The position numbers were made by a program, and so were the translations under genes. Of a DNA stretch of 64,000 nt, positions 5,157 to 36,146 are shown in pieces. Numbering within the stretch: the first letter of the stretch is position 1; each line of letters starts with the position of its first letter. The DNA is from an uncultured Piscirickettsiaceae bacterium (GTDB lineage: Bacteria > Pseudomonadota > Gammaproteobacteria > GCF-002020875): contig CAYFOR010000001.1 in assembly GCA_964344785.1 (NCBI GenBank), forward strand, positions 22,723-86,722, written 5' to 3'. A model generated the notes under the pieces. The model had not been told where the DNA came from. It saw nothing but the letters and a program-made list of their open reading frames with translations, and searched no databases.

Positions 5157-5170
5157 CTGATTTTAATCCT

Positions 5171-13980: not shown

Positions 13981-15783
13981 TCACGCCCCATCCTGACATC
14001 CACGCTCAGCAACGGCAAAACCGCCTTCGACCCGATAGACACAATCCGCCACATCAACCAGTGGCTGCCGGTGAGATACGGCCAGCACAGTCACCTTGCG
14101 GGATATGGTGTGGATCAGCTTGCAGAGTGCGCGCTCCGTTTCGTAGTCAAGATTGGCGGTCGCCTCGTCGAGGATCAACAGTTGGGGTTTACGAACCAGC
14201 GCTCTGGCAATCGAGATCCGCTGCCGCTGGCCACCTGAAAGCTGGCTGCCCCGCTCACCGATCTGACTGTTGACACCTCCCACTCTGGAGGCGACAAACT
14301 CCCAGGCGCCAGCAAGCTGCAACGCCTCTTCAACCTCCGCCTCCCCAATCTCCGGGTCATTCAAGGTAACATTTGCATGAATGGTGTCGTTGAGCAGCAA
14401 GACCTCTTGTGGAACATAGCCAACCTGTGCCCGCCACTGATGAATATCGGTATCACTGAGCAGCTGCTGCTCCAGCATCACGGCCCCTTCGGCAGGTTGG
14501 TGCAGACCGGAAAAAAGATCAATGATGGTGGTCTTTCCCGCACCGGATGGGCCCACCAGAACCGTCAACTGACGGGCTGGCAAGGTGATTGAAATATTCT
14601 CGAAAACCCGATACGAACCATAGCTGAACCCCACATCCCGCAGACTGAGTCCAGCATTGATCTGCGGGGGAGGATTACCACCTGCCAATTGCTCCTGCTC
14701 CTCACGAGTATCGGCAATCGCATTATGGATGGCCCAGAATGCACTCTCCTTGTTAATCAGCTTCTGGTAGGCCTTCTGGGTATCCCCAAGCCTCGATACC
14801 AGACGAATAAACAATAGCGCGGTGACCATCAGTTCCGCAATAGGCTCCTTGAAAATCACCAGGGCAACATAAGCTGCAGCACCAAGGAAGATCACAATCA
14901 ATACCTCATGTGATGCCCGCAGCAGCCCGTTGCTGAAGGCGCGATGATAGTCGGCAATACGCAGCTCTGAAGACTCTTCCTGCAGAACTTGGCCAAATCG
15001 CCCTTCCATCGCCATCGCCTTGATCGGCTTGATTGCTGCAATCCCATCGGTAAGGCGGGTGATCAAGGACTGCATTAACTCTGTCTGCCGCTCTCCAGCA
15101 CGACGTGCCATTGCCACCACACCTCTAAGCAATACCAGGATGAGCAAGCCAAATAGTGCTGCCGCCAATGCGACCCGCCATGAGACGGAAAAAACCAGCA
15201 CAACCAATATCAGTGCCTGCGTGATACCCACTCCCATATCGACCACACCCCGATAGGCAGCAGCGCCACGGGCAGCCTCACTGCTGATGGCATTGGAGAG
15301 CCTACCGATAGGTTGCCGTGAAAAGTAGCTCCAGCGAGCACACATCAGCCCCTTCAGCAGTCCAATACGCATCTCCTCCAAAACCCGGGCTGATGCAAAG
15401 CTGGCCAATACCAAGGCAGCCATGGTCAGGAGTGCCTTGAAGATGACAGCAACGACAATCACGCCCAACAGAACACCTATATCGGCACTCAGGCCAAACC
15501 ACGCCAAGGCGTCTTGAATCAGAACTGAAATACTGTCGCTGGCTGCCCCTTCTCCTAAAACCCCCCCCAATAGAGGGAGAAGGGAGACAATGCTCAGCCC
15601 CTCAGCAAAACCCCCAAGAAAGAGCAGCATGAATACCAGCGCACTGCGCCCAGGATAGGCTCGAAGGAAGAACCGCAGCATACCGATAAAGTTCTGCGGC
15701 AGCGCCTTGTCTTGGGGTTCGAACTTTTTCACTCGGCAGTTATATAGGCGTGCCGAAAAGCTGGATCGCTCAACCGCAGGCAA
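13981..15783 (-). CDS. Fused TMD-NBD ABC exporter (MsbA/PglK-like type I exporter)
   Basis: 600 aa; six predicted TM helices followed by Walker A GPSGAGKTT, signature LSGGQRQRISIARAL and Walker B LILDEAT. The 5' end overlaps the upstream ORF, so the true start is probably the internal Met near 15690. Confidence 0.85.
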   Translation of the reverse strand: MPAVERSSFSARLYNCRVKKFEPQDKALPQNFIGMLRFFLRAYPGRSALVFMLLFLGGFAEGLSIVSLLPLLGGVLGEGAASDSISVLIQDALAWFGLSADIGVLLGVIVVAVIFKALLTMAALVLASFASARVLEEMRIGLLKGLMCARWSYFSRQPIGRLSNAISSEAARGAAAYRGVVDMGVGITQALILVVLVFSVSWRVALAAALFGLLILVLLRGVVAMARRAGERQTELMQSLITRLTDGIAAIKPIKAMAMEGRFGQVLQEESSELRIADYHRAFSNGLLRASHEVLIVIFLGAAAYVALVIFKEPIAELMVTALLFIRLVSRLGDTQKAYQKLINKESAFWAIHNAIADTREEQEQLAGGNPPPQINAGLSLRDVGFSYGSYRVFENISITLPARQLTVLVGPSGAGKTTIIDLFSGLHQPAEGAVMLEQQLLSDTDIHQWRAQVGYVPQEVLLLNDTIHANVTLNDPEIGEAEVEEALQLAGAWEFVASRVGGVNSQIGERGSQLSGGQRQRISIARALVRKPQLLILDEATANLDYETERALCKLIHTISRKVTVLAVSHRQPLVDVADCVYRVEGGFAVAERGCQDGA

Positions 15784-17354
15784 TCATCTCGAAGGGCTGT
15801 GTGCAAATGCTCCCACTCCAGACCAGCACGATAGGTATCCCTGGCGTAGTTGGCCTCTACAATCGCGACTCGACGCTCCAGCAGCGCACGTGCTGTCTCA
15901 GAAAGGGCATCAACGCCAAAATCCACCAGTACCATTGGCCTGCCGGAACTGACCCCCGAAATAAAGGCCGTGGTATGGAAGGTATCAAACAACAGGGCAT
16001 CCGCCTTTTCATACCACTCTTCAACCACCCCCTCCACCAGATGCACCCCAATCGAGTCGAGGTAGTTCCCGGGCGGAAGTGCTCGCTCACTGGGGTGGGG
16101 CTTCCAGTAGACTTCATAGCCCCACTTGCGCAGCTGTGACATCAGCCGCGCATACCAGTCCATCATCCCCACCCTCGGCAATGTCGGTGAGAAGAACAGT
16201 GACGCTTCATCGGCCAGCCCTGAGACGAACAGAATGCGTTTGACCTGCTGTGCCGATAAGCGCCCTTGCGCGCTGGATCTCGATGCCACACGCATCGACG
16301 GAGCACTCTGCGGGAGTGGTATCCAGTCTATAACCGGTGCAGTCTTCTGTATCAGCAGGCTCTTGTCGATGTTGTGACGATTCCCCTCTGCCTGCCCTGG
16401 CGCAAAAGTGACAAAACGGCTGCAGTGTTCGAACTCTCTGAGTGTCTTGTAACGGTCACTGCGGTGACCGGCCCCGGTACCATGGTCATGCCCTGTTACT
16501 TCACCGCCATTTCGCATCACTGCAACGCGCAACATCCTGGACCAGATCTGCATGCCTGCCCCTGTCCATAGACGCCGGGGAACCTTTTCCATGTTCACTT
16601 CAAGGTGACGCAGATGAAAGCGTACTGCCCCCAGTGCCTGATGCAGCCAACGCCTCTGGTGTTCGATAATGATGGTGGGCAGCGACTCTCCCCCTTCCGT
16701 AAAGGCACGTTCGGTCAATGCCACAACATCCTCCACCACGCGCTCATCATCCTCTTGATCTGCCACCGGAGCGTTGACCGGGCCAAACCAGGTATGGGGG
16801 CCACGATAAACGACCCGTTCACCACACTTCTCGGCATGACTCTGAATCAGCGGCGACAAAGTCATGGTCACGATATCGCGATTGTAGTCCACCCCAAGGA
16901 GAGGATAGCGTGATATGGAGTCCACAAAACGCATCAGCCAGCCGCGTGCAACACGCAGTGGGAGTCGCAGCTTTCTGGGCCGAAAAGGTCCGCTCAACAG
17001 TTCACGCAGCATCGGAGGCGAAGCCGGCACGCTGCCTTCATACAGCGCCGAAAACAACCTTTCATTCTGTGGAAGTATCAGCTCACGCCCTGCTTCCCGA
17101 CTGCGACGTACCACGCCCCAAGCTTGATAGAGTGACATGATCTCTGTGTTGATGATGAAGATCAGCACCAACAGAATCTCTGCCGCCTCACCTCGACCCT
17201 CAGCCTGTAATTGACGCACCAGCCCAACCAACCCCTGAACGGTTACATCACGCACCGCCAATATCTCTGAACGGGCAACCGGCCAGTGGTAATCAACCAC
17301 CCCATTTGGCCCAACCTGCGCCTGTGCACAGTCCAGAAACACCGGCTTTCCCAC
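15729..17354 (-). CDS. Large hypothetical protein inside the glycan locus (candidate transferase)
   Basis: 541 aa; no family motif recognised by eye; coding-like composition; same strand and tight spacing with neighbours. Confidence 0.4.
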   Translation of the reverse strand: MGKPVFLDCAQAQVGPNGVVDYHWPVARSEILAVRDVTVQGLVGLVRQLQAEGRGEAAEILLVLIFIINTEIMSLYQAWGVVRRSREAGRELILPQNERLFSALYEGSVPASPPMLRELLSGPFRPRKLRLPLRVARGWLMRFVDSISRYPLLGVDYNRDIVTMTLSPLIQSHAEKCGERVVYRGPHTWFGPVNAPVADQEDDERVVEDVVALTERAFTEGGESLPTIIIEHQRRWLHQALGAVRFHLRHLEVNMEKVPRRLWTGAGMQIWSRMLRVAVMRNGGEVTGHDHGTGAGHRSDRYKTLREFEHCSRFVTFAPGQAEGNRHNIDKSLLIQKTAPVIDWIPLPQSAPSMRVASRSSAQGRLSAQQVKRILFVSGLADEASLFFSPTLPRVGMMDWYARLMSQLRKWGYEVYWKPHPSERALPPGNYLDSIGVHLVEGVVEEWYEKADALLFDTFHTTAFISGVSSGRPMVLVDFGVDALSETARALLERRVAIVEANYARDTYRAGLEWEHLHTALRDDCLRLSDPAFRHAYITAE

Positions 17355-17374: not shown

Positions 17375-18676
17375 CTATTTACGCACCTGAAAAACGGGCT
17401 GGATCGGTTCTCCCAGCAACTGTTTTTCAGGGGCATCCGTATTCAAATGGGATTGTAGGGTGCCAAGTGCCTGTTCAATTCCGTGAAGGGTGTGCCCCAA
17501 CACCTCTGGATCGCTGCAATGGGCATAACTGAGGTTGAACCCCCCGCCCATCAGGACTCCATTGGCCACCAACTCCTGACGCAACAGACTGGTAACCATC
17601 GTGGGCTCAACCCCATCCACCCCTTTCACCGCAAAACGGGGCCACCACTCGACCCCCTGCAACCCGACAACTTCCTGTACACCACTCTTTTCAATCACTG
17701 CTCCCAGTTCGGAAAAGATCCGGTTACCAAACTGTGCAAACTGCTCGGGAGCCTCCACCCGTTCCAGCTTGTCCAGTGTAGCGATCGAAGCTGCCAGCGA
17801 AAGTGCCTCACCACCAAAGGTTCCAGAGAAGAAGATATCCTCCATAAACCGCATGATTTCACGCTTTCCAACGATCGCGGAGATCGGCATTCCATTGGCC
17901 ATCGCTTTGCCGAAGGTGGCAAGGTCGGGGGTCACCCCGTATTTGGCCTGTGCGCCTCCCATATCAATGCGAAAACCGGTCACGATCTCGTCAAAGACCA
18001 GTACCACTCCATATTTCTCGGTCAGCTCCCGAATTCGCTCCAGGTACCCCGGTTCCGGTGCAGCCACCCCGGCAGGTTCAAGGATCACGGCCGCATAGGC
18101 TTCAGGGGATGTCTTAAGCAGTTTTTCCAGAGAGTCGGCATCGTTATACGAGAACGTGTCGGTCAATTCGCGCACAGCCCCCGGTACGCCCAGGTGGCGG
18201 GCAGTAGAGCCGATATACCAGTCATGCCAGCCATGATATCCGGCCACGGCGACCCGATCACGCCCGGTATGAGCTCGCGCCAGACGGATTGCGGCGCTGG
18301 TTGCATCAGAACCATTTTTTCCGAAACGCACCATCTCTGCGCAAGGAATCAGCCTCACCAGTCGCTCAGCAAGAACCATCTCCAGTTCGCTGGGCAGCGA
18401 GAAGACAATTCCTTTATCCAGCTGGGCACGGATTGCCGCATCCACATCAGGGTCACGATAGCCCAGAACCACAGGCATCAACCCCAATACAAAATCCACA
18501 TAGCGATTGTCATCAGGGTCCCATACCCATGCGCCTTCACCACGCTCCATGAACAATGGAGAAGCACCTCGCACATACATCATGGCAGACTTGGAGAAAG
18601 TCTGGGAGGCAAGCGGGATGGTGTTGAGCGCCCGCTGATAGAGCCGGTTGGAGTGGTCGAAACGGTTGACGGTCAT
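17375..18676 (-). CDS. Class III PLP-dependent aminotransferase (glutamate-1-semialdehyde aminomutase-like)
   Basis: 433 aa; VVLVFDEIVTGFR, the PLP-lysine region ATFGKAMANGMP, and N-terminal GSDATSAAIRLAR. Confidence 0.85.
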   Translation of the reverse strand: MTVNRFDHSNRLYQRALNTIPLASQTFSKSAMMYVRGASPLFMERGEGAWVWDPDDNRYVDFVLGLMPVVLGYRDPDVDAAIRAQLDKGIVFSLPSELEMVLAERLVRLIPCAEMVRFGKNGSDATSAAIRLARAHTGRDRVAVAGYHGWHDWYIGSTARHLGVPGAVRELTDTFSYNDADSLEKLLKTSPEAYAAVILEPAGVAAPEPGYLERIRELTEKYGVVLVFDEIVTGFRIDMGGAQAKYGVTPDLATFGKAMANGMPISAIVGKREIMRFMEDIFFSGTFGGEALSLAASIATLDKLERVEAPEQFAQFGNRIFSELGAVIEKSGVQEVVGLQGVEWWPRFAVKGVDGVEPTMVTSLLRQELVANGVLMGGGFNLSYAHCSDPEVLGHTLHGIEQALGTLQSHLNTDAPEKQLLGEPIQPVFQVRK

Positions 18677-18694
18677 CTCTATATCTTGTCGCTA

Positions 18695-19642
18695 TTATTG
18701 AGGGCGGACGATCTCTCTGCTAAGCCGGTAGACACTGGCTCCCGACTCTAGCCGAACCTCTGGAATCGAATAATCGCCCGCTGCGGCACGCACCATCCAG
18801 ATCAAGTCCTGAAAGCCGAGGAGATGTCTCATTTTTACGGTGCTGGAAATACGTGGATTGATCTCGAAAATCCCCGGCCCATCCGCTCCCATACGTAGCT
18901 GTACATTGAGTGGCCCCTGAAGATCTGCAGCTTCTGCAAGGTGGCACAGCATCTCAGCAACCTCAGGCAGATCTTCGACAATTGCCGCGATGGTTCTCCC
19001 GGCATCGAGCTTTCTCCGCAGTATCAGGGTTCGCACCTCACCGGATATACGCAATACTGCACAGGTATACTCCTGTTCGGCATCCGACAGGTATCCCTGT
19101 GCCACATAATCATCACCAAACTGGGTCTGCAACCCCACCAGTAACGCCTCTGTCGTAACCAGAATGACTCCGGACGACCCTGATCCTGCCCGTGGCTTGG
19201 CAATGAGTGGCAACTCCTCTGCAACGGCCTGTGACAACGGTTTGGTCGGTAGCGTAGGCAAACCATGAGACTCCAGCCAGTGCGCACCACGCAACTTGTC
19301 AACGAACGCCTCCACCAGATGGGGCTGTGGCATCATTAGTGGCAGGTCACACTCACCATCACGCTGTGCCTGGGCAAGACGTAGAAGCTCGGTATCGTTG
19401 CAAGGAATCACCCACTCGGCACCAACCTCCTCGGCACGTTTGCTCAATGCCTTGATGTAATCTGGATGGTCGCCTCTCGGTACCCTCGCATTCGAGCAGT
19501 ATATGGCCTCTGCAGGCCATGCATCACCTGCATCCACACTATGTACCAAGGTATCCGGCATGGCATCTGCAAAGACACCGCACACCGCCTCGGCAAGATC
19601 ACCATTGGCAGCGGTGACCAGTACACTTTTAGGTTCGCTCAC
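18695..19642 (-). CDS. ATP-grasp domain protein (carboxylate-amine ligase-like)
   Basis: 315 aa; LIAKPRAGSGSSGV and FEINPRISS segments resemble an ATP-grasp fold. Confidence 0.5.
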   Translation of the reverse strand: MSEPKSVLVTAANGDLAEAVCGVFADAMPDTLVHSVDAGDAWPAEAIYCSNARVPRGDHPDYIKALSKRAEEVGAEWVIPCNDTELLRLAQAQRDGECDLPLMMPQPHLVEAFVDKLRGAHWLESHGLPTLPTKPLSQAVAEELPLIAKPRAGSGSSGVILVTTEALLVGLQTQFGDDYVAQGYLSDAEQEYTCAVLRISGEVRTLILRRKLDAGRTIAAIVEDLPEVAEMLCHLAEAADLQGPLNVQLRMGADGPGIFEINPRISSTVKMRHLLGFQDLIWMVRAAAGDYSIPEVRLESGASVYRLSREIVRPQ

Positions 19643-20343
19643 GCCTGTTCTGTCCTTTCCAACACTGTTCTCAGATAGTCGAGACCGGGATCACGGCGGG
19701 AACACTCGTATTGAACCCTCTTGATATCATAGGGCTCCACCCGGTGTTCCACCTGCCTGGTAGTCAGGTCCACAACTGCCCAGTGCGCACCTGGTCGGTG
19801 GTTTCGCGGCTGCCCGACCGAGCCCGGATTCACTACCATGCCACTCGCTCCCTGCCACACCAGCGGGTAGTGGGTATGGCCGTAAAACACCATGTCATAG
19901 CCATTCGCCACCCGTTCCAGCACCTCTTCATCTGCATCAGGATAGAGATAGGCATCCGCATCCCATGGCGTACCATGACACAGCAACATCCGCACTCCTT
20001 CCAGCTCCAGTTCACGTGACTCAGGAAGAGTACAGAGCTGATCCAACTGTGCCTCTGTGCACTGTTCCAATGCGGCTTCGATACCATTGCCGTAACGGCC
20101 TCTCAACATCAAACGATAGGTCGGATTTTGCCTTGCCATACAGAGCATGCGCTCATGATTACCTCCGATCATCACTGCATCGACCTGTTCCAGTCGCTCA
20201 AGGCACCGTACGGGCCAATAGTAGTACCCCACCAGATCACCCAGAAAAAACCAGTGGCTGATCTCCTCTCTCTCGGCAGCCTTTAAGACCTCTTCTAACG
20301 CGGTAAGGTTGGCATGTATATCGGAGAGGATGCCAACTCTCAC
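19639..20343 (-). CDS. Metallophosphoesterase (YfcE/MJ0936-like phosphodiesterase)
   Basis: 234 aa; ILSDIHAN, GDLVGY, GNHE and GHTH metallophosphatase motifs. Confidence 0.75.
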   Translation of the reverse strand: MRVGILSDIHANLTALEEVLKAAEREEISHWFFLGDLVGYYYWPVRCLERLEQVDAVMIGGNHERMLCMARQNPTYRLMLRGRYGNGIEAALEQCTEAQLDQLCTLPESRELELEGVRMLLCHGTPWDADAYLYPDADEEVLERVANGYDMVFYGHTHYPLVWQGASGMVVNPGSVGQPRNHRPGAHWAVVDLTTRQVEHRVEPYDIKRVQYECSRRDPGLDYLRTVLERTEQA

Positions 20344-21249
20344 CTACACGGCTCCGGTGCGAACAACAATGGTAAGGGTTCGGCCAATACCGCACTTTGC
20401 CATGGCACGCCCCAGATTGTGGAAGTGCTCCATCCCCTGCCCAGCCATCATCAGGTCCATGGTGACTCTTGCATGATGGGCCGCTTTTCCCTGAGTCTGG
20501 TCGTTCACATAGTTCGAAGCCGGATGAAAGAGGAAGAGCTCTATCGGAAAACCGCCATAGAGGTCCAGCACCTTGCAGCCCGCTTCCTCAAAAAAATGGG
20601 GCAACGTGTTGCAGTTGAAGTAGTGAAGGTGTTGCGGTGGAGAGAACCAGTACTCCCGGTCCACATGTCCTATCTCCAACAGACGCTGCTGCATGTCACT
20701 ATAGTCGTTGGGAACCGTTACGACGAGGACGCCACCAGGCTCTACGATGGTGGCAAGCCGCTGAATCAGTGCCTCGGGGTCCAGTACATGCTCCAGCACG
20801 TTGTTCAGGGTACAGGCATGGTAGCGCTCGCCACGATCCACCGCCTCTTCCAACAGGCGGTAGGCGTCCCCGACACGAACCTGCTCTGCCACTTGAGGGT
20901 TAAGATTTTCAACCGCGAAACCAGAAAAATCGATTCCGCTCACTTCCCATCCTCGATCAGCCGCCGACGCCAGTACATACCCCTCTCCGCAGCCAACATC
21001 CAACAGCTTCCGTAGCGGCACCCCTGCTCTGGTTTGAAGCGAGTGTTCAATTGCATAGACGTGCTGGTCTGCACAGAGCCTCTTGTGTGCCAACTCCTCA
21101 TCACTATAGCTGCGTTGATAGGAGCGGCTCTCCGATTGCTGGTAATAACGCTGGTGATAGAACGCTGTCAGCTCCTCCTCATTAGGAAGAGGATCGGCAC
21201 TCTTATATCCTCCAGCTGCATCTACGCAGCGAAACGCCTTATCTTCCAT
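20344..21249 (-). CDS. Class I SAM-dependent methyltransferase
   Basis: Motif I LLDVGCGEGYVL. Start placed at ATG 21249 (MEDKAF...). The track ORF extends to 21462 but that would overlap the upstream gene. Confidence 0.7.
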   Translation of the reverse strand: MEDKAFRCVDAAGGYKSADPLPNEEELTAFYHQRYYQQSESRSYQRSYSDEELAHKRLCADQHVYAIEHSLQTRAGVPLRKLLDVGCGEGYVLASAADRGWEVSGIDFSGFAVENLNPQVAEQVRVGDAYRLLEEAVDRGERYHACTLNNVLEHVLDPEALIQRLATIVEPGGVLVVTVPNDYSDMQQRLLEIGHVDREYWFSPPQHLHYFNCNTLPHFFEEAGCKVLDLYGGFPIELFLFHPASNYVNDQTQGKAAHHARVTMDLMMAGQGMEHFHNLGRAMAKCGIGRTLTIVVRTGAV

Positions 21250-22090
21250 ACTGCGATTTGATCTGTTCCAGTGATTCCAGGAAGGTGTGTCCTGCTGGCA
21301 GGGCCGGAGATGGCTCAACGACACTGTCAACCGAGCGCCCCCCCGATAACCGCAGCGGTTCACTGCCGGGAATGAAGGTGTCACACAGCTGTTGCAGCAT
21401 CTGTGCAATGGTGAGCGGCTCCCTTCCAGCAACAAGATGCACGCCCTCAATCCGCTGTTCAATCACAGTAGCCACACTATCCGCCAGGTCGTCGACATAA
21501 ATGTAGTTGCGCTTACCAAGCCCATCACCATAGAGCTCCGGCACCTCTTCTGAATCCACTGCAGCGCTGATTGCACGATTCAGCCCCAGATGTGCGGGAC
21601 CTCCATAGCCATAAATCCCGGCAATGCGCAAGATGGCATAGCGATCGACACTGGCAGTCACGATTTGCTCTGCCAACAGCTTTGCTTCAGCGTAGGGAAT
21701 GGCTGGAGAAAGAGGAGTTGAAGCGTCAACCCTGGTCATCGCGCCATGAACCAGCGTGCCTGAGGCCAGCACAAAGTGAGCATCCCAACGCCGGGCCAGA
21801 TTCGCCAGAAGCGTTGTCGCCAGTACGTTGGTTCCAAAGAACTGCTTCAGCTCTGCATCCGGGGAGAAATCGACCCGTGTAGCCAGATGAACAATGGCAT
21901 TGCAGGGCGGCAACCCCTCCAGCAGGGCTGCTGCATCTGCACTATCAAAGTCTACAACCCTCTCTCCAGACATCCCAGAGGATCTGCGCAGCAGTGGAAC
22001 CACCTCCCAACCCAGGCGCTTCAGCTGCGCCATAACCGACTGACCGGAAAAACCGCCAGCACCCGTCACCAGTACCCGTTTTGACTCCAT
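21239..22090 (-). CDS. NAD-dependent epimerase/dehydratase (extended SDR)
   Basis: 283 aa; VLVTGAGGFSGQ Rossmann motif and YAEAK catalytic pair. Confidence 0.75.
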   Translation of the reverse strand: MESKRVLVTGAGGFSGQSVMAQLKRLGWEVVPLLRRSSGMSGERVVDFDSADAAALLEGLPPCNAIVHLATRVDFSPDAELKQFFGTNVLATTLLANLARRWDAHFVLASGTLVHGAMTRVDASTPLSPAIPYAEAKLLAEQIVTASVDRYAILRIAGIYGYGGPAHLGLNRAISAAVDSEEVPELYGDGLGKRNYIYVDDLADSVATVIEQRIEGVHLVAGREPLTIAQMLQQLCDTFIPGSEPLRLSGGRSVDSVVEPSPALPAGHTFLESLEQIKSQYGR

Positions 22091-22099
22091 ACTCCAGCT

Positions 22100-22837
22100 T
22101 TACTGCTCGACACCAAGCAACTCTGGCCTGCGTGTTGCCAAAGACAAGGCATCCAGCCAGCTATACTCTTCCGGAAGATTGCACACCAGCGCTCGAATGC
22201 GCTCCATATCCTCTGCAGTATCCAGGGTCCAGCGAAGGTGTCCAAGGTCCGTCATGAAAGTGACCTGTTCACGATGAAAATCACCTGCACCATATTGTGG
22301 ATGGCTGCCACGAATATAGGGAGTCACATGCTCACGGGGAAACGGCTGCTCTACGCTACGGTCTGCCTCTCGCAAAGCATCCATGGTAAATACCTCCACA
22401 TCCAGGCCATCCGGGTAGGTTCGCACATTGCAATTTGAGACATAATCCGCCTCTCCAACTTCGTAGGCGGTGACAATCTCGTCAATCAACTCCGGATCAA
22501 TCATCGGGCAGTCTGCTGTGAGGCGCACAACCGATTCTGCTCCATTTTCGTCAGCCGCTGCCAGAAAGCGTCCCAGAACATTCTGCTCATCCCCACGAAA
22601 GGTTTTCACTGCAAGTGAGTCACACAGCTCCACCACCGGGTCATCGGTGGCATTGACCGTAGTGGCCACTACCACCTGATCAATACGACGAGCCCGCAAC
22701 ACCCGCTCCAGCATGCGTTGCAGAGCTGGTCTTCCACAGATATCCATCAGCACCTTCCCCGGCAATCGTGATGAAGTCATACGCGCCTGGATGATGGCAA
22801 CAACGCGCCCACGTTGACCATGCGTCTCCATGCTCAA
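22100..22837 (-). CDS. Cytidylyltransferase of the SpsF/PseF/NeuA fold (CMP-nonulosonate synthetase-like)
   Basis: 245 aa; VVAIIQARMTSSRLPGKVL N-terminal motif of SpsF/PseF-type cytidylyltransferases. Confidence 0.7.
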   Translation of the reverse strand: MSMETHGQRGRVVAIIQARMTSSRLPGKVLMDICGRPALQRMLERVLRARRIDQVVVATTVNATDDPVVELCDSLAVKTFRGDEQNVLGRFLAAADENGAESVVRLTADCPMIDPELIDEIVTAYEVGEADYVSNCNVRTYPDGLDVEVFTMDALREADRSVEQPFPREHVTPYIRGSHPQYGAGDFHREQVTFMTDLGHLRWTLDTAEDMERIRALVCNLPEEYSWLDALSLATRRPELLGVEQ

Positions 22838-23781
22838 GCGATCAACACTCCATGAAGCTGTTCCGCCAGATCGATTGCAATACGGCGCTGAGCATCCAGC
22901 GTAGAGGCTGCCATGTGTGGTGTCACGGTCACCCTTGGGTGGGCGAGAAGTGGGTGAGAATAGTTGTGCGCTTCAGGACTGGCATCAAAGGGAGGTTCGG
23001 GATCCAGCACGTCAAGCGCGGCCCAACCGATTTGTTCTGAGTTCAGCGCCTCCAACAGCGCCTCTTCATCAATGAGAGCCGCTCTGGCACTGTTGACCAG
23101 CAATAACCCGGAACGCACTTTGGAAAACTGGTCACGCCCCAGCATATGACGGTTGTCACTGGTTAGGCGCGCATGAAATGAGAGCAGGTCAAGCCGTGGC
23201 AGCATCGACTCAAAGTCATCGACCAGTTCCCCCCCCAGCTCAATAAAGCGTTCATGTCCGGCACTACCTGGGTCATACCCCAGCAATTTACAGCCAAACG
23301 GTGCCAGCCTCTCCGCCACTGCCAGACCCACACGCCCAAGCCCGACCAGCCCGACCGTGAGACACTGCAACTCTCTCCCTTCAAGCAGATGGCGCCGAAA
23401 GTCCCCGCTTGCGATAAAGCGTTCCGCCTCAGGAAAACGGCGACACAGTGAGAGAATCTGTCCTACTGCATACTCCGCACCTGAAATACTGTTTCCCGCA
23501 GGCACGGTATGGACCGCAATACCGCGACGCTGCGCTTCATCCAAGTCAATATTATCAACTCCAGTACCTGCCCGGCCCACTACCTGAAGCTTCGGAGCAT
23601 GCTTGAAAAGTTGACCATCCACCTGAACTACACTCTTGACAACAACTGCATCCGACTTCGCAACGGCGTCCAACACAGCGGCACGCTCAAGCCCAAGTGA
23701 GAGATGTACTTCTGCAAACTGCGCCATACGGTCCACCCCGTCAGGGTGTATCGCTTCCAGAATGGTAATTCTCGGCCTCAT
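22834..23781 (-). CDS. D-isomer-specific 2-hydroxyacid dehydrogenase (PGDH/GDH-like)
   Basis: 315 aa; GLVGLGRVGLAVAERL NAD-binding motif and catalytic His region. Confidence 0.8.
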   Translation of the reverse strand: MRPRITILEAIHPDGVDRMAQFAEVHLSLGLERAAVLDAVAKSDAVVVKSVVQVDGQLFKHAPKLQVVGRAGTGVDNIDLDEAQRRGIAVHTVPAGNSISGAEYAVGQILSLCRRFPEAERFIASGDFRRHLLEGRELQCLTVGLVGLGRVGLAVAERLAPFGCKLLGYDPGSAGHERFIELGGELVDDFESMLPRLDLLSFHARLTSDNRHMLGRDQFSKVRSGLLLVNSARAALIDEEALLEALNSEQIGWAALDVLDPEPPFDASPEAHNYSHPLLAHPRVTVTPHMAASTLDAQRRIAIDLAEQLHGVLIA

Positions 23782-24812
23782 TTGCTCACCACACGGAGAG
23801 ATTTGTAGGGGACCACTCTGCTTCCCAACGGAACATCCACCTCAGGCAACGGTTCCCCCTTGGCCAGCGAGACCACATCCTCCAGCAGTGGCACCCCTGC
23901 AGCAATACTGACCACAACACTGCCACTTTGCCGGGGATTGATCTCCAGTACACAGGGGTTTCCCTGGCGGTCGTACATCACATCGCAATCGTAAAGCCAG
24001 GAGAGGTTGAACCCTTTGATCAGCTGCTCTCCCAGTTGCTGCAACTCGGGAGCATCAACCAGTGTATGCCCCTCATTGGGTACTGCGGAATCAATACGCC
24101 TGCGAGCAACCACACGCATCGGTTCCCCCTTCCATGCCAGCATATCAAGATCATGTACCGGTTCTTCAAGTCGTTCCATTACCAGTACAGGAAATGACTC
24201 CGAGAACCCTTGCAGATAGCGGTTCTTGAAGTGCTCCAGATCCATATGGATCTCACGTCGGTCATCAAACCGCTGCTCCCCTTCAATATCACTGCGGATC
24301 ACACAGACCCCCCGTCCTCCCCGCTCCGAAGAGGGTTTGATCACAAACTCGGGAAGCTCCTTTGCAAAGTCAGCAATCACTGCCTCCAGTGAGGTAATAC
24401 TTGTAGTCTCTTTCCAGGCAGGCATCTTTACCCCCAATAACTCAAGGCGGCGGTAGGTCTCTACCTTGCTGGAGACCGTCTGTACCACCTCCGTCGGCGC
24501 ACAGGCCAGAATCCGTTCACCCGACTCAACACGCTGTCGCGCTTCGGCAAGCGCAAGCGCCTCTTCATCCGAAGTAGGCAGAATCAGATCCACCTGAAAA
24601 CGCTCTGCAATCTCGATAATGGCGTCCACATAACCCGGCTCTGCACCCATCGGAGTCAGTGCGAAGTGGTCACAAAAGTGACGGCCGATGGCGCTCTCCT
24701 GGGCGTCCACACCCACAACCTTGATATCATGGCGTTGGCTCTCTTTAAGCCCCTGGATCATTTGCGGGGCCATCTCACCGCCTACACATGTCAATAGAAT
24801 AGTAAAGCTCAC
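23778..24812 (-). CDS. ATP-grasp enzyme (CPSase large-subunit-like ligase)
   Basis: 344 aa; VIKPSSERGGRGV and LEINPR segments. Confidence 0.6.
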   Translation of the reverse strand: MSFTILLTCVGGEMAPQMIQGLKESQRHDIKVVGVDAQESAIGRHFCDHFALTPMGAEPGYVDAIIEIAERFQVDLILPTSDEEALALAEARQRVESGERILACAPTEVVQTVSSKVETYRRLELLGVKMPAWKETTSITSLEAVIADFAKELPEFVIKPSSERGGRGVCVIRSDIEGEQRFDDRREIHMDLEHFKNRYLQGFSESFPVLVMERLEEPVHDLDMLAWKGEPMRVVARRRIDSAVPNEGHTLVDAPELQQLGEQLIKGFNLSWLYDCDVMYDRQGNPCVLEINPRQSGSVVVSIAAGVPLLEDVVSLAKGEPLPEVDVPLGSRVVPYKSLRVVSK

Positions 24813-24918: not shown

Positions 24919-25971
24919 TTATTCGAACAGCCCCTCAGTTACCGGTTCATCCACTGCCAGATCGCGAACGGCCCGGCAGCCCAGCACCTCATCATAACGT
25001 GCGGGCTCCAGTCCTCTGTGCTCTGGCAAAGGACGTTTGACCGTCAAATTCTCCTCTGTAAACCGCTCACCTGCAGCCAATGCACGACGCACAACCAGAC
25101 AACGCATGAATTTCTTTCGTGTCCCACCCAGAATCTCAGCACTCTCTTTGCCGACGTGTTTTCCCATCACAGTCTCTGCCTGACGTACCCGGGTTACCAA
25201 TCTGCGCAGACCCTCAGGATCAACCGAGATATGATGATCCAAACCACTACGTGAGGGGTCCAGAGTAAAGTGTTTCTCAATCATGCTCGCTCCGGCCGCA
25301 ACAGCAAGTGCCGCCGCTTCATCTCCCAGCGAGTGGTCCGAAAAGCCGACCGGTACTTCCCACTTCCTAGACATCCGCTCCATAGTCGCGAGATTGAGTG
25401 TTTCAGGAGGTGCCGGGTAGAGGGAGGTACACTGAAAGAGGGCAATCTTGTCCGCCCCCTCCTGCCGTACCATCTTTAGTGCGGTATCAAGCTCTGCCTC
25501 CTCTGCCATACCACTGGAGATCAGAATGGGCCTGCTGTAGCCGGCAATACGGCGAATCAGCGGGAGATGGGTCAGCAATCCCGATGAAACCTTGTGTGCG
25601 GCTGGCTGCAGTGCCTCAACCCATTGCAGGGTGTTGAAATCACCTGCGGTAGTGAGTGGCTCCATACCCAATGAACGGGCCAATTCAAACATCCTGGCGG
25701 TCTCTTCACGGGTCAGGCCCGCCCCCTTGAATACCTTATGACTCTCACTGCCTACCACATAGTTCTCATCGGCATCGATGGTCTGCAACTTGATGGCGTC
25801 TGCCCCGGCACGAGCCGCCTCTTCGACCATCCTGGCACACTGCTCGACACTCCCCTCATGGTTGACTCCAATCTCGGCAATCACCACAACCGGTGCATCC
25901 GGGCCAATTCTGCGGCGCCCAAATGGGATGGATGCCACACGATCCGTCTCTTCCATTTCGAGCTTCATCAC
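24919..25971 (-). CDS. pseI: NeuB/PseI-family nonulosonate synthase with SAF domain (paralogue 3; probable pseudaminic acid synthase given its neighbours)
   Basis: 350 aa; VIAEIGVNHEGS, GFSDHS and IEKHFTLD motifs; adjacent to pseG. Confidence 0.8.
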   Translation of the reverse strand: MMKLEMEETDRVASIPFGRRRIGPDAPVVVIAEIGVNHEGSVEQCARMVEEAARAGADAIKLQTIDADENYVVGSESHKVFKGAGLTREETARMFELARSLGMEPLTTAGDFNTLQWVEALQPAAHKVSSGLLTHLPLIRRIAGYSRPILISSGMAEEAELDTALKMVRQEGADKIALFQCTSLYPAPPETLNLATMERMSRKWEVPVGFSDHSLGDEAAALAVAAGASMIEKHFTLDPSRSGLDHHISVDPEGLRRLVTRVRQAETVMGKHVGKESAEILGGTRKKFMRCLVVRRALAAGERFTEENLTVKRPLPEHRGLEPARYDEVLGCRAVRDLAVDEPVTEGLFE

Positions 25972-25984: not shown

Positions 25985-26962
25985 TCAAACGGAATATTCA
26001 CTCATGACTGCCGCTACTCGCCTGCCTCCTCCCCCATCGACGGCCCCACGTCCCATTCTGGCCATCTCTCCTCGCCTAGAGCAGTCTTGAAGCAGTGCTT
26101 GGAGCTGATTCATCATCATCTCGACCGTAAGCCCCGAAGCGATACCCAGGTTTTGGGTAGCCCCCTGTTCCACAGCCCACTCCACCTGATTACGTTGATT
26201 GTCGGCCACAATCACAGACAGTGAAGGTCTGCCGGCAGCCATGCGCTCAAACAGACTGACACCACCAGCACCCATAACCAGCTGTACTGAAGACATCAAC
26301 TCACACATTGCCCTGGTATCGACATACAACTCAACTTCCACCCTTCCCATCGAAACGGCATTACGTAATGCTGCAAGATGGGGCGCACCACTGCCAATTG
26401 CGATCGCCACTTTCCCCTTGAAACCAGTCTGCTCCAGAGCCTGCAGGGCCAAACTACTCAGATTATGTGAATCACGCAGACCAAAGGCGAGGAGTACACT
26501 GTCAACCTCACCTTCAGGTTCACGAAGTCCCGCGTAGCAGGGATCGAGCAACGCATAGCGAGCACCAGAAAGCAGACGGGAATCTCCGATCAGATGGTGA
26601 GGTACAACGTGCAGGCTCGGCGCAATGATCAGGTCCGCTTGCTCCGAGGCCGTACCGAGATCGTCGATCTGGGCCAAAACACCGCAACGTCCCTTCCACT
26701 CCTTTCGCTGCGCCTCACTGAAACTGTAACCATCCATCAAAACCCCACGGAACGAGGCAAGATCCGGCAACATTTGTCCACTATAGGAGATGCCCATCCC
26801 TTCTGCCTCGATCCTTTCAGCCCATGATTCACCGCCGGGATCCAATACAAAATGAACCGGCTGAAGGCGTTTAAGCTCCTTTGCCAATGTAAGGCAACGC
26901 GCCAGATGCCCCCCTCCCACTTCTGGTGTCGAAGCAACGCGAAAGACCCAGCCTCCGGCCAC
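25985..26962 (-). CDS. pseG: UDP-2,4-diacetamido-2,4,6-trideoxy-beta-L-altropyranose hydrolase (PseG, GT28-like fold)
   Basis: N-terminal FRVASTPEVGGGHLARCLTLAKEL resembles the PseG signature. Start placed at GTG 26962 to avoid overlap with the upstream gene; the track ORF runs to 27082. Confidence 0.65.
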   Translation of the reverse strand: MAGGWVFRVASTPEVGGGHLARCLTLAKELKRLQPVHFVLDPGGESWAERIEAEGMGISYSGQMLPDLASFRGVLMDGYSFSEAQRKEWKGRCGVLAQIDDLGTASEQADLIIAPSLHVVPHHLIGDSRLLSGARYALLDPCYAGLREPEGEVDSVLLAFGLRDSHNLSSLALQALEQTGFKGKVAIAIGSGAPHLAALRNAVSMGRVEVELYVDTRAMCELMSSVQLVMGAGGVSLFERMAAGRPSLSVIVADNQRNQVEWAVEQGATQNLGIASGLTVEMMMNQLQALLQDCSRRGEMARMGRGAVDGGGGRRVAAVMSEYSV

Positions 26963-26975
26963 TGACTGGGTTCCG

Positions 26976-27944
26976 TTAACCGGGAAGACCTGCCATACGA
27001 CGTGCACGAACGGTCTCGTGCAGGATACGGGCAGCCTCCACCCCATCACATGCGGGCTTCTCTTGCCCTTCAACACAAGCAAGAAAAGATGCCATCTCTA
27101 CCTTGTAGTCCTCTGCTGCACTACTCTCCCACACCCACTGATTGAGCAGGGTACCATCGGTTGACGTATGCTGAAGACGACGGTTGCTGATCTCCAGGCG
27201 TAGAAAGCCGCTTGAGCCACAAATTTCCGTTACCCTGTATTTTGGACGGGTGATGTAATCCACGTGAGTAACCGAAACCAAACCATCAGGATGACGCAAC
27301 ATGATATCCGCACAGTCGTCACTTTCGATCTCCAGTTGACCACTGGTTCTCGCCTCGCATGCCACCGTCTCACCCGCTCCAAAAAGATAGTTGGCCAGAT
27401 CGAGTTCATGAATGGAGTCAAACAGCACACCACCGCTCTTCGGATCAGCGGCATACCCTTTTCGATAATCACTATCCGGTCGCCAATCGGGCAGATAGGA
27501 GCCACACATCAGCCGACTCCAGAGTATCTCTCCAATCGCGTTAGACTCAATCAGTGACTTTGCCTTGCGAACACCAGGGTGGTAACGCAGATTCTGCCCT
27601 ACAAAAAAGACCCGTCCAGTACTGGCAGCAGCCTCAACCAGTGCATCCAGCCCCTCTATGGTATGTGCCAGTGGCTTCTCTACAAAGATGTGGCACTCCT
27701 GATCCAGGGCTGCGGCGCAATGATCAATATGGTGCGCATTCGGTGTTGCAACAACAACCGCTTCGCCTCCTCGAAGAGCGGCCTCGACACTGTCAACAGT
27801 CCGCCCCCCCTTCTCTTCGAGCATGGCTTGCCGCTGCGTGTCAGGGTCAAACCCGATCACCTCCGCACCAAGCTCAATGAGGTTAGTTGCATGACGCAGA
27901 CCAATGGAGCCCAACCCAAGAACCGCAACTACACGCCTAGCCAT
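26976..27944 (-). CDS. Gfo/Idh/MocA-family oxidoreductase
   Basis: 322 aa; VVAVLGLGSIGLRHA Rossmann motif. Confidence 0.75.
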   Translation of the reverse strand: MARRVVAVLGLGSIGLRHATNLIELGAEVIGFDPDTQRQAMLEEKGGRTVDSVEAALRGGEAVVVATPNAHHIDHCAAALDQECHIFVEKPLAHTIEGLDALVEAAASTGRVFFVGQNLRYHPGVRKAKSLIESNAIGEILWSRLMCGSYLPDWRPDSDYRKGYAADPKSGGVLFDSIHELDLANYLFGAGETVACEARTSGQLEIESDDCADIMLRHPDGLVSVTHVDYITRPKYRVTEICGSSGFLRLEISNRRLQHTSTDGTLLNQWVWESSAAEDYKVEMASFLACVEGQEKPACDGVEAARILHETVRARRMAGLPG

Positions 27945-28494
27945 TTTGCGCTAACCACTCACTACGTAATAGACCAAACTCAATACAGTCCACAAACTCG
28001 TTATCACAAAACGCGTGACCTCTGCGGACCCCTTCAGTGGCAAAATTGAGTTTCTCGAAGAGCCTGACCGAAGGTCGGTTGACCACATAGGCGGATGCTG
28101 TCACCTTGTTTAGCTCCAGCTCCTGAAAGGCAAACCGTGCCAGCAGCATGATCGCCTCACCGCCAAACCCCTTTCCATGGCTCCGGCTATCCCCAATCAG
28201 AATACCAATGCTGCCGCGACGATGGTTCCAGTCCACTGGCCCCAGCTTGATGTTGCCAATGTGCTGGTCATCCTCTATGGTGGCGACCGCAAACAGATAA
28301 CTGTTTTTATCCTTCTCCATCGACGTGACATAGTCACGAAGGGACTCTCTATCCCAAACTCGATAACGGCTCTCCAGATAACGGTTGATCTCGGGATTGT
28401 TCATCCACTTGCAGTAGCACTCTGTGATTTCATCCAGACGTAACTGCCGCAAGCGGATACGCTGCCCATCCAGTTGGTACTGGTCAACATTCAC
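27937..28494 (-). CDS. GNAT N-acetyltransferase (PseH-like)
   Basis: 185 aa; acetyl-CoA-binding motif IGDSRSHGKGFGGEAI; position between pseB/pseC and pseG. Confidence 0.65.
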   Translation of the reverse strand: MNVDQYQLDGQRIRLRQLRLDEITECYCKWMNNPEINRYLESRYRVWDRESLRDYVTSMEKDKNSYLFAVATIEDDQHIGNIKLGPVDWNHRRGSIGILIGDSRSHGKGFGGEAIMLLARFAFQELELNKVTASAYVVNRPSVRLFEKLNFATEGVRRGHAFCDNEFVDCIEFGLLRSEWLAQNG

Positions 28495-31675: not shown

Positions 31676-32238
31676 GAACGGATTGGCTCCAGCCCGTCAT
31701 CCCCCTTCTGATAACGTGTCCCACACTCCGGGCAGGCGAGCTGTTCATCCAGTTTTACTCCACAGCTGCAGGCCCACCCCTTCTGCCTGGCAGGGTTTCC
31801 CACCATCAATGCATGATCAGGAATATCCCGTGTTACCACCGCACCAGCCCCGATCAGGCAGTACCGTCCCAACGTGTTGCCACAGATGATGGTGGCATTC
31901 GCTCCGATTGTGGCGCCCCGCTTGACCCGAGTCTCACGATATTCATGTTTGCGGGAGACATGGGCACGCGGATTGATCACATTGGTAAAGACCATGCTTG
32001 GACCACAAAAGACATCCTCTTCCAGCACCACACGATCATAAAGGGAGACATTATTCTGGATCCGTGCATTGTCTCCAATTATCGCCTCATTGCCGACAAA
32101 GACATTTTGCCCTAAGGAGCAACCAGCACCAATCCTCGCTCCAGAACAGACATGTACCCAGTGCCAAATTGCAGTACCATCACCAATAGTCGCACCCTCA
32201 TCTACAATAGCGGAAGGGTGAATGTTGATATTATCCAA
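31672..32238 (-). CDS. wbpD: Hexapeptide-repeat (LbH) N-acetyltransferase (WbpD/WlbB-like)
   Basis: 188 aa of left-handed beta-helix hexapeptide repeats. Confidence 0.7.
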
Positions 32239-32241
32239 GCG

Positions 32242-33330: not shown

Positions 33331-33336
33331 AGTGGC

Positions 33337-34779: not shown

Positions 34780-34825
34780 TATTTTGCGATGCTGTTGCGT
34801 TGAGATTGCAGGCGAGTCAAGAGCG

Positions 34826-36100: not shown

Positions 36101-36146
36101 GTAAGCGCCCTCATCAAGTACTGTTTATTACTTCACCATCAACTGC

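Follow-up and report, generated by a model that had tools for sequence, protein, structure and literature searches.

A conserved gene cassette with ATP-grasp ligases as a candidate for N-acyl exchange on pseudaminic-type nonulosonic acids, from an uncultured Piscirickettsiaceae bacterium

The interval from position 17375 to 24812 of a 64-kb stretch of DNA from an uncultured Piscirickettsiaceae bacterium (the window, meaning the whole stretch analysed) carries minus-strand genes whose predicted products may build and modify a nonulosonic acid. An earlier note on this DNA had described the interval as a decoration module for pseudaminic or legionaminic acids, with two ATP-grasp ligases, an aminotransferase, a 2-hydroxyacid dehydrogenase, a phosphoesterase, methyltransferases and a cytidylyltransferase. 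Searches against Pfam and NCBIfam found all the named enzyme types on the minus strand, and the observation of the gene set is confirmed. The genes are the following.

17375-18676, minus strand: class-III aminotransferase (HemL-like); Aminotran_3 182 bits, best NCBIfam model PRK06209
18695-19642, minus strand: ATP-grasp1; ATPgrasp_Ter 59 bits and ATP-grasp_3 32.5 bits, both above cut-off
19639-20343, minus strand: metallophosphoesterase; Metallophos_2 93 bits, motifs DxH, GD, GNHE and GHxH all kept
20344-21462 (open reading frame; gene probably 20344-21249), minus strand: class-I S-adenosylmethionine (SAM) methyltransferase; Methyltransf_23 85 bits
21239-22090, minus strand: extended short-chain dehydrogenase/reductase (SDR) of the RmlD/epimerase type; Epimerase 102 bits, TGxxGxxG and YxxxK motifs
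22100-22837, minus strand: SpsF-type cytidylyltransferase; CTP_transf_3 109 bits against a cut-off of 22.6
22834-23781, minus strand: D-2-hydroxyacid dehydrogenase (2-HADH) of the phosphoglycerate dehydrogenase (PGDH) type; Pfam 163 and 91 bits for the two 2-HADH domains
23778-24812, minus strand: ATP-grasp2; ATPgrasp_Ter 67 bits, PylC-like_N 48 bits

The domain searches thus agreed with the note on the HemL-like aminotransferase, 2-HADH, phosphoesterase and cytidylyltransferase, and they placed both putative ligases in ATP-grasp families above cut-off. The methyltransferases and phosphatases that it had assigned to the module were borne out in part: one class-I methyltransferase and the metallophosphoesterase lie within the interval, while the TylF-type methyltransferase gene (11765-12430) and the HAD genes (5992-6522 and 8367-8996) lie outside it. 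The real start of the class-I methyltransferase is probably the ATG at 21249 (from the translation), which gives a protein of 301 residues. For ATP-grasp2, the 344-residue reading from a GTG start is supported by homologue alignments that begin at residue 1 and reach 98-100% coverage, and residues G11 and P16 of this reading are invariant among homologues. The public gene call (P0001, 331 residues) is therefore probably too short, with a wrong start.

The genes of the interval abut or overlap by a few bases, and several start/stop overlaps measure 4 bases, including that between the stop of ATP-grasp2 and the start of 2-HADH. Promoter- and terminator-like sites between 11000 and 30800 were fewer than in shuffled sequence, and no internal boundaries were detected there. 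The close packing and the lack of internal boundary sites are consistent with a single operon. Minus-strand genes run from about 38278 to 975, and we hold with moderate confidence, jointly with the functional explanation given below, that the interval is the downstream portion of one long minus-strand operon from about 31675 to 12427.

We fetched loci carrying ATP-grasp2 (23 genomic and 80 metagenomic) and mapped the window proteins onto them; gene presence was counted in the 54 ATP-grasp2 loci of at least 9 kb. The most frequent partners were the divergent nonulosonate synthase NeuB_b (50 loci), a PIG-L family de-N-acetylase (42), the aminotransferase and the cytidylyltransferase (39 each), followed by PseB (27), PseC (24), 2-HADH (23), a GNAT N-acetyltransferase (21) and PseG (20). 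The phosphoesterase and the SDR were found in six loci each, ATP-grasp1 in five, the interval methyltransferase in two, and TylF and HAD homologues in none. The gene immediately before ATP-grasp2 was NeuB in 65 of 77 loci, and the gene immediately after it was 2-HADH in 32 of 70; cytidylyltransferase and aminotransferase were neighbours in 34 of 42, and aminotransferase and PIG-L co-occurred (p = 0.008). The usual order was NeuB–ATP-grasp2–[2-HADH]–cytidylyltransferase–aminotransferase–PIG-L, with PseB and PseC alongside. The same order is seen in dozens of unrelated loci from metagenomes and genomes and is beyond chance. The comparison shows that ATP-grasp2, 2-HADH, the cytidylyltransferase, the aminotransferase and PIG-L, as predicted from their sequences, form a cassette conserved across many bacteria. 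Its order is kept together with NeuB, PIG-L, PseB and PseC in about 100 related loci; the interval is not a free-standing decoration module.

PIG-L (29719-30411), like the SDR (21239-22090), was absent from the earlier note and is the most telling partner. Most related loci have PIG-L after the aminotransferase, whereas in the window its gene separates PseC from PseB, so the cassette is rearranged here. Among the carriers of the cassette are genomes from single cells or metagenome assembly with the labels Pelagibacteraceae, SAR86, Rhodospirillaceae, Rhizobiaceae, Verrucomicrobia and others, and two cultured bacteria, Roseobacter sp. HKCCD7870 (GCA_037830315.1) and Agaricicola taiwanensis (GCA_014635245.1). 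Missing from the window are some recurrent partners, namely an aldo/keto reductase, an AsnB-like amidotransferase, a second 2-HADH type and a small methyltransferase.

Gene fusions connect the cassette enzymes with one another. The cytidylyltransferase is fused to the aminotransferase in many members, under the JGI name "GSA aminomutase/SpsF", and to a GNAT in the Roseobacter strain. In the ATP-grasp2 family, fusions to CTP_transf_3, to a PseG-like protein (relative P0497) and to a GNAT occur, and GNAT fusions were also found for ATP-grasp1 (one relative) and for the aminotransferase (one member). Since the ligases and the aminotransferase are thereby joined to steps between hydrolysis of the uridine diphosphate (UDP)-sugar and its activation with cytidine monophosphate (CMP), the ligases most likely act on sugar intermediates, that is, on the sugar itself. 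The aminotransferase is a regular partner of the cytidylyltransferase, often fused to it, and the two appear to be core genes and not decoration genes.

The SDR, methyltransferase, phosphoesterase and ATP-grasp1 genes are shown by the locus comparison to be a rare, optional and presumably accessory insert. An SDR–phosphoesterase–ATP-grasp1 block, with or without the methyltransferase, stands between the cytidylyltransferase and the aminotransferase in loci L009, L011 and L062, as it does in the window. The phosphoesterase, which resembles PDB entries 3rqz and 3qfm, co-occurs with the SDR (Fisher p = 1e-5) and with ATP-grasp1 (p = 5e-4) and in related loci always lies directly upstream of ATP-grasp1; no co-occurrence with 2-HADH was found across these loci. 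The methyltransferase adjoins the phosphoesterase/ATP-grasp1 pair in L006, L009 and L109. The TylF and HAD genes, which the earlier note had counted among the module partners, were rejected as such by co-occurrence (0/54 loci).

Structure prediction settled the assignment of the two ligases. AlphaFold models of ATP-grasp1 and ATP-grasp2 reached a predicted local distance difference test (pLDDT) score of 93.7 and 92, respectively, and Foldseek comparison of these models confirmed a predicted three-domain ATP-grasp fold in both open reading frames, as the earlier note had proposed; the absence of this fold, which the note had named as grounds for giving up its reading, is thus not borne out. The top match of ATP-grasp1 was 2pn1 (template-modelling (TM) score 0.81-0.83); ATP-grasp2 matched 2pn1, RizA, PurK and PylC in the PDB (TM 0.6-0.83). 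Over both proteins, 2pn1 (TM 0.75-0.83) was followed by PurK, PurT, PylC, RizA/L-amino-acid ligases and biotin carboxylases (E ~1e-15 to 1e-18). In sequence searches against the PDB, 2pn1 was the sole match of ATP-grasp1 and ATP-grasp2 had no match. Family alignments identified invariant ATP/Mg2+ residues in ATP-grasp1 (K149, E260, N262 and R264) and in ATP-grasp2 (K159, E290, N292 and R294). The profiles of the two aligned with an hhalign probability of 99.9 at 24% identity, from which we conclude that they are paralogues. The ATP-grasp2 family comprises 452 representatives at 50% identity (E <= 1e-30; closest relative 59% identical), and that of ATP-grasp1 is small (135 matches). We propose that ATP-grasp2 is the core amide ligase and ATP-grasp1 an accessory one; acylation of a sugar amine is the best reading of their predicted activity.

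The cytidylyltransferase of the interval scored only 24.5 bits against the PseF model TIGR03584 (cut-off 205.7) and up to 72 bits against KdsB models, which is above the PseF score yet below the cut-offs of the KdsB models themselves. Its closest solved relative is PDB entry 6oew (137 bits). The other cytidylyltransferase of the window (7645-8352) pairs with a different synthase, NeuB_a. The interval enzyme had been read as part of the decoration; it is most likely the CMP-nonulosonate-activating enzyme of its own pathway, because it is the sole CTP_transf_3 gene conserved with NeuB_b (39/54 loci) and is of the SpsF type. The genetics of SpsF agree: in Bacillus subtilis SpsF is required for the use or transfer of legionaminic acid and is dispensable for its synthesis (PMC7439481).

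The aminotransferase fell below all HemL equivalog cut-offs (PRK06209, 382 bits against a cut-off of 486; TIGR00713, 264 against 527). It keeps the lysine that forms the Schiff base with pyridoxal phosphate (TFGKAM, aligned with TLGK/TFGK of HemL) and the FDEIVTGFR motif. The stretch aligned to the HemL loop that gates the active site is about eight residues shorter. After HemL, the next-closest PDB relatives include sugar C-6' aminotransferases and epimerases. More than 8000 proteins matched at E <= 1e-40, the closest being 59-69% identical to the window protein.

For 2-HADH the best NCBIfam model was PGDH (TIGR01327, 281 bits against a cut-off of 454), and its best PDB matches were D-3-phosphoglycerate dehydrogenases. 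Pfam and NCBIfam detected no ACT/ASB regulatory domain, which places the protein with the short PGDH type. Aligned to PDB entries 1ygy and 6plf it keeps the catalytic Arg (NSARAA), Glu (PEPP) and His (TPHMAAST), in agreement with the phosphoglycerate type that the earlier note had assigned. The Arg of the GRAGTGVDN motif is also kept, and a Lys replaces the Arg of "VRS"; in human PHGDH, Arg residues at these positions hold the distal anionic group of the substrate. The retained residues, judged from the catalytic set and these Arg positions, are compatible alike with 3-phosphoglycerate, 2-oxoglutarate and hydroxypyruvate. The enzyme thus appears to be phosphoglycerate-dehydrogenase-like, yet it is not an equivalog-level SerA, and its context is a glycan operon.

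Upstream of the interval the same strand carries the genes of a pseudaminic-type backbone route, and downstream of it lie candidates for transfer and export of the product. All are listed here from upstream to downstream.

30470..31675, minus strand: PseC, UDP-4-amino-4,6-dideoxy-N-acetyl-beta-L-altrosamine transaminase; TIGR03588 472 bits against a cut-off of 423
29719..30411, minus strand: PIG-L family de-N-acetylase; Pfam PIG-L 99 bits, BshB models match best
28534..29562, minus strand: PseB, inverting 4,6-dehydratase of UDP-N-acetylglucosamine; TIGR03589 511 bits against a cut-off of 408
27937..28494, minus strand: PseH-like GNAT N-acetyltransferase; Acetyltransf_3 82 bits, PseH model 57 bits, below the cut-off of 93
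26976..27944, minus strand: GFO/IDH/MocA oxidoreductase (Pfam)
25985..27082, start probably near 26947, minus strand: PseG-like UDP-sugar hydrolase; NCBIfam PseG 138.5 bits, below the cut-off of 153.6
24919..25971, minus strand: NeuB_b, divergent nonulosonate synthase; Pfam NeuB 227 bits, and SAF
15729..17354, minus strand: protein of 541 residues, candidate cassette-associated transferase; no Pfam or NCBIfam match
13981..15783, minus strand: MsbA/PglK-like ABC exporter (Pfam and NCBIfam)
12427..13929, minus strand: distant relative of the BFO_1060 glycosyltransferase family; NF046086 76 bits, below the cut-off of 200, and TIGR04396 74 bits, below the cut-off of 125

PseB and PseC exceed their NCBIfam equivalog cut-offs; the PseH-, PseG- and PseI-type proteins are homologous and remain below theirs, NeuB_b scoring 272 bits with the NeuB model and 253 bits with the PseI model (cut-off 340), both below cut-off. 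Judged by these scores, PseB and PseC are bona fide, and the PseH-like GNAT, the PseG-like hydrolase and the divergent NeuB complete the predicted backbone route. The pseudaminic-type pathway assumed in the earlier note was thereby upheld, and the position of ATP-grasp2 next to NeuB in 65 of 77 loci speaks for it as well. The 541-residue protein aligned with a family of about 620 residues that precedes NeuB in 24 related loci (hhalign probability 94%, E = 1e-7), and the ABC exporter is present in 13 of 38 related loci of at least 12 kb. For the BFO_1060 family there is genetic evidence of a role as pseudaminic or legionaminic acid transferases in Tannerella (PMC5420450). Directly upstream of the Pse genes (31672-38278) lie WbpA-, WbpB-, WbpE- and WbpD-like genes with ManC and an epimerase, the uronic-acid genes proper spanning 31672-37241; these genes are expected to make a UDP-2,3-diacetamido-2,3-dideoxy uronic acid.

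We consider it fairly probable that the operon serves to assemble a pseudaminic-type nonulosonic acid, to re-acylate it and to activate it with CMP, the product being exported to a surface glycan. In the proposed route, PIG-L would remove an N-acetyl group, most simply the one derived from N-acetylglucosamine (the future N-5), and expose an amine. ATP-grasp2 would activate a carboxylic acid as an acyl phosphate and couple this acid to the sugar amine. 2-HADH, translationally coupled to ATP-grasp2, might supply or oxidise a D-2-hydroxyacyl unit with a distal anionic group, for which glycerate or 3-phosphoglycerate, 2-hydroxyglutarate and malate are candidates. The aminotransferase may act around the activation step and add a nitrogen either to the backbone, for which an 8-amino sugar gives a precedent, or to a 2-oxoacyl side chain, and this nitrogen would then be acylated. 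The GFO/IDH/MocA oxidoreductase is a possible source of the keto group for this reaction; its homologues were found in only 4 of the 54 loci. With the insert of the window, ATP-grasp1 would use a phosphorylated partner to form a second amide, the phosphoesterase would trim the product, the methyltransferase would methylate it and the SDR would reduce or epimerise it. The SpsF-type enzyme would then form the CMP-sugar, to be delivered by the downstream transferase candidates and the ABC exporter.

Mycothiol synthesis follows a comparable logic, in which a deacetylase (MshB) acts first, then an ATP-dependent ligase (MshC) and then a GNAT (MshD). In mycothiol and bacillithiol a PIG-L-family deacetylase (MshB/BshB) frees the sugar amine, the ATP-dependent ligase acylates it and the GNAT caps the product. 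The likeness is one of logic only, as MshC resembles a Cys-tRNA synthetase and not an ATP-grasp enzyme, and the substrate is glucosamine-inositol or glucosamine-malate. Closer to the present sugars, the ATP-grasp protein SfmE contributes mass to the flagellin nonulosonate of Shewanella (PMC3765264). The O-antigen of Tenacibaculum maritimum contains an 8-amino nonulosonate of manno configuration, with an R-2-hydroxyglutarate residue as part of a linkage, and marine bacteria commonly carry amino sugars with N-acetyl-alanyl and N-formyl groups (PMC3210612).

Counted beside the aminotransferase, N-acylating enzymes of the GNAT and ATP-grasp types number three each in the window and in L109, L111 and L112, and four in L113. 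Three such enzymes per locus fit three nitrogens. We therefore entertain, as a tentative extension, that the cassette represents an undescribed nonulosonate branch making tri-N-substituted pseudaminic-type sugars (triamino or aminoacyl-bearing), in which PIG-L and ATP-grasp exchange N-acyl groups, and that this branch is widespread on the surfaces of abundant marine bacteria, Pelagibacteraceae, SAR86, Roseobacter and Rhodospirillaceae among them, and is present in the sulfur-oxidising host of the window as well. Several observations weigh against the proposed route or parts of it. NeuB_b and the PseG- and PseH-like proteins lie below equivalog cut-offs, which leaves the final stereochemistry uncertain, and L004 encodes two N-acylating enzymes only. 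Many minimal cassettes are without an obvious dehydrogenase to make the backbone keto group for the aminotransferase. With 2-HADH present in 23 of 54 loci and so missing from many, ATP-grasp2 cannot generally depend on it. The clusters of Legionella and Leptospira appear to pair an aminotransferase, of class III in Legionella, with a cytidylyltransferase, and no ATP-grasp is reported for them (PMC3694923, PMC3438082), so that the aminotransferase may act independently of the ligases.

Two of these loci show further genes at the cassette. In L113 (Agaricicola taiwanensis) a formyltransferase (4060-5061) follows PseC at the position where the PseH-like GNAT is expected, which suggests an N-formyl variant of the same cassette. 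In L004 a PPDK_N/PEP-utilizers protein and a Peptidase_C26 glutamine amidotransferase (18016-21035) come directly after the cassette; this pair resembles Cj1418 and Cj1417, which act in O-methyl-phosphoramidate synthesis in Campylobacter.

A sharper form of the proposed route places the nitrogen on the backbone: the aminotransferase would add a third backbone amine, for example at C-8, an ATP-grasp would acylate it with a D-2-hydroxy dicarboxylic acid made by 2-HADH, and PIG-L and the other acylating enzymes would serve N-5 and N-7. We regard this version as possible, short of probable. The fusions of the aminotransferase to GNAT and cytidylyltransferase, the three N-acylating enzymes in most fully annotated loci and the sugar C-6' aminotransferases and epimerases among its PDB relatives all point this way, as do the Arg residues kept in 2-HADH, which in human PHGDH bind a distal anion. 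The T. maritimum O-antigen combines both expected features, an 8-amino nonulosonate and an R-2-hydroxyglutaric acid linkage residue (PMC3210612). The paper on the Tenacibaculum O-antigen cluster, however, names no ATP-grasp, cytidylyltransferase or dehydrogenase, so the tie to the 8-amino sugar is chemical only. A C-8 dehydrogenase is not evident in many minimal cassettes, and Legionella has the aminotransferase beside the cytidylyltransferase, yet the O-antigen reported outside serogroup 1 is a diamino sugar (PMC3694923, its reference 98).

The earlier note had proposed that 2-HADH and a phosphatase make D-glycerate, that an ATP-grasp ligates it to the nonulosonate amine and that the TylF-type and class-I enzymes O-methylate the product, in an island of the flagellin type with the cytidylyltransferase as an extra. 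2-HADH is indeed PGDH-like and directly coupled to ATP-grasp2, the operon includes a phosphoesterase and a methyltransferase, and N-glyceroyl pseudaminic acid has been found in Tannerella forsythia, where its biosynthetic enzymes are unidentified (PMC5378307). We nevertheless judge this scheme unlikely. The phosphoesterase varies together with ATP-grasp1 and the SDR and not with 2-HADH, which directly follows ATP-grasp2, and this speaks against a glycerate-making pair. The cytidylyltransferase is a core gene frequently fused to the aminotransferase, TylF and HAD homologues are absent from all 54 loci, and the scheme gives the aminotransferase, PIG-L and the SDR no role. Among the scanned main open reading frames along the 64-kb window there were no genes for flagellin, for Maf/PseD/PseE-type transferases or for other acceptors; the context is an ABC exporter, a weak relative of the BFO_1060 family and uronic-acid genes, which does not favour a flagellin-glycosylation setting. 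What remains of the proposal is the ligation itself: acylation of a sugar amine by an ATP-grasp is the reading that we share, and glyceroyl is a possible acyl group which nothing singles out. The interpretation in the note is thus partly supported.

The ligases could also work with the opposite polarity, activating a carboxyl group of the sugar (that of a uronic acid, C-1 of the nonulosonate or a dicarboxylic side chain) and coupling it to a small amine made by the aminotransferase, with the phosphoesterase removing a phosphate. We take the Campylobacter jejuni HS:2 route, with transaminase Cj1437, amidoligase Cj1438 and phosphatase Cj1435, as the model for such a scheme. Aminotransferase, ligase and phosphoesterase are co-located in the window, the region upstream (31672-37241) holds the 2,3-diacetamido uronic acid genes, and AsnB-like amidotransferases in 15 of 38 related loci suggest free carboxyl groups. 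Marine bacteria are known to make uronic acids amidated by amino acids (PMC3210612). ATP-grasp2, however, keeps company with NeuB and not with uronic-acid genes (UDP-sugar dehydrogenase in 3 and WbpB in 1 of the 54 loci), and the near-universal PIG-L makes a sugar amine, implying that the amine in the coupling comes from the sugar. Most loci are without the phosphoesterase, and a free C-1 carboxylate is normally retained in CMP-activated nonulosonates. Reversed coupling therefore seems improbable, and action of the ATP-grasps on the upstream uronic acid in particular is disfavoured by synteny.

That ATP-grasp2 is a PurT/PurK-like one-carbon ligase, N-formylating or N-carboxylating the amine freed by PIG-L from formate or bicarbonate, is very improbable: PurK and PurT are among its closest folds and marine bacteria are known to have N-formyl pseudaminic acids (PMC3210612), yet ATP-grasp fold similarity is generic, the amino-acid ligases RizA and PylC score equally well, the Agaricicola locus has a conventional formyltransferase besides ATP-grasp2, and the coupled PGDH-type dehydrogenase would be left without a role.

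Compared with known systems, the re-acylation route proposed here shares its backbone part with the CMP-pseudaminic acid pathway of Helicobacter pylori and C. jejuni (PseB, C, H, G, I and F). PseB and PseC of the window are clear orthologues, and the other steps are covered, in matching logical order, by the GNAT, PseG-like, NeuB and CTP_transf_3 proteins. The PseH, PseG and PseI homologues, in contrast, stay below cut-off and the cytidylyltransferase is not PseF-like. The canonical pathway has no counterpart of PIG-L, the two ATP-grasps, 2-HADH, the class-III aminotransferase, the SDR, the methyltransferase or the phosphoesterase. The sps genes of B. subtilis (SpsE, SpsG and SpsF) resemble the combination of an SpsF-type cytidylyltransferase with a PseG-like hydrolase and a NeuB; their product is a legionaminic acid, whereas the window sugar is of the pseudaminic type. 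The sps operon is not known to include an ATP-grasp, a PIG-L or a class-III aminotransferase.

SfmE of Shewanella oneidensis comes closest as an experimental precedent for nonulosonate decoration by an ATP-grasp. The sfmABCDE genes encode a PseI-like synthase, an SDR, a SAM methyltransferase and an ATP-grasp carboxylate-amine ligase; without the ATP-grasp less mass is lost than without the other sfm genes, as expected of a decoration step (PMC3765264). In domain composition, the only feature compared, SfmE is an ATP-grasp_4 protein of 412 residues, whereas the window ligases are of the PylC_N/ATPgrasp_Ter type. The sfm system also differs in that it modifies flagellin and includes Maf proteins, with no PIG-L, class-III aminotransferase or 2-HADH reported. 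The Pse5Am7Gra locus of T. forsythia likewise concerns a pseudaminic acid with non-acetyl N-acyl groups, and its divergent cytidylyltransferase is inactive on Pse5Ac7Ac and scores 37 bits to C. jejuni PseF (PMC5378307, PMC5420450). The transferase GtfS/BFO_1060 of that locus belongs to the family that the window protein at 12427-13929 matches weakly, below cut-off. The enzymes that modify the Tannerella nonulosonates were stated to be unidentified, and finding them was called "a major challenge" (PMC5378307, PMC6388019).

In Legionella pneumophila serogroups 6 and 12, a class-III ("GSA aminomutase") aminotransferase adjoins an acylneuraminate-type cytidylyltransferase, with PseG and a GNAT nearby (PMC3694923). 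In Leptospira interrogans, a CMP-synthetase, an unassigned aminotransferase and a synthase have consecutive accession numbers, which suggests that they are adjacent (PMC3438082). Both differ from the window in that no ATP-grasp or PIG-L is reported, and there too the aminotransferase has no assigned function. Literature searches that paired ATP-grasp or class-III aminotransferase with pseudaminic, legionaminic or nonulosonic acids returned the Shewanella sfm paper and the Legionella gene table only, and no characterised enzyme of the cassette. What is new is the conserved, uncharacterised cassette; the pseudaminic backbone route and the SpsF-type cytidylyltransferase are known.

Recognition of bacteria by hosts, immune systems and phages is shaped by nonulosonic acids that carry uncommon N-acyl groups (glyceroyl, hydroxybutyryl, alanyl, glutamyl and acetimidoyl). 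PseA- and PtmG-type amidotransferases are essentially the only enzymes known to install such groups. The cassette provides concrete candidates in a deacetylase, two amide ligases, an aminotransferase and a dedicated CMP-synthetase. If the proposed pairing of PIG-L with ATP-grasp is true, deacetylation followed by ATP-dependent ligation of a hydroxy or amino acid would fill a gap among the enzymes of N-acyl exchange. The cultured carriers make the gene set directly testable. Pelagibacteraceae and SAR86 are among the most abundant ocean bacteria, and their surface glycans are largely uncharted. The interest of the cassette lies in these testable enzyme candidates and in its spread among abundant marine bacteria and not in a new principle.

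The glycan island around the operon holds further genes of similar kinds. Three homologues of the NeuB family of synthases lie in it (6519-7571, 9011-10540 and 24919-25971), the middle one, of 509 residues, with a fused C-terminal cupin domain. Between 5992 and 8352, a gene similar to KdsC and Kdn-9-phosphate phosphatases is grouped with NeuB_a and the PseF-like cytidylyltransferase (7645-8352), which suggests a second ulosonic-acid pathway that would proceed via a phosphorylated intermediate. At the far end of the island, the region 975-5983 encodes a transketolase-like protein of 638 residues, an aldehyde dehydrogenase, an SDR and a Methyltransf_24-like protein, an unusual mix for a sugar cluster. 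The island is bounded by a tRNA-Ser(GGA) gene that adjoins pgsA, an adenosine 5'-phosphosulfate (APS)-kinase gene and uvrC (38504-41829), and the guanine-cytosine content is unchanged across this boundary. A family of about 174 residues, APS-kinase-like by eye, recurs in seven related nonulosonate loci; together with the gene near the island it hints at sulfation. Further along the window (48574-61015), Pfam matches fit dsrAB (NIR_SIR), dsrM, dsrK, dsrL, dsrO, dsrP and dsrN, a dsr cluster of the sulfur-oxidising type. This cluster marks the host, an uncultured marine bacterium, as a sulfur-oxidising gammaproteobacterium, in agreement with its release factor 3, which falls into one 90%-identity cluster with that of Candidatus Thiopontia autotrophica.

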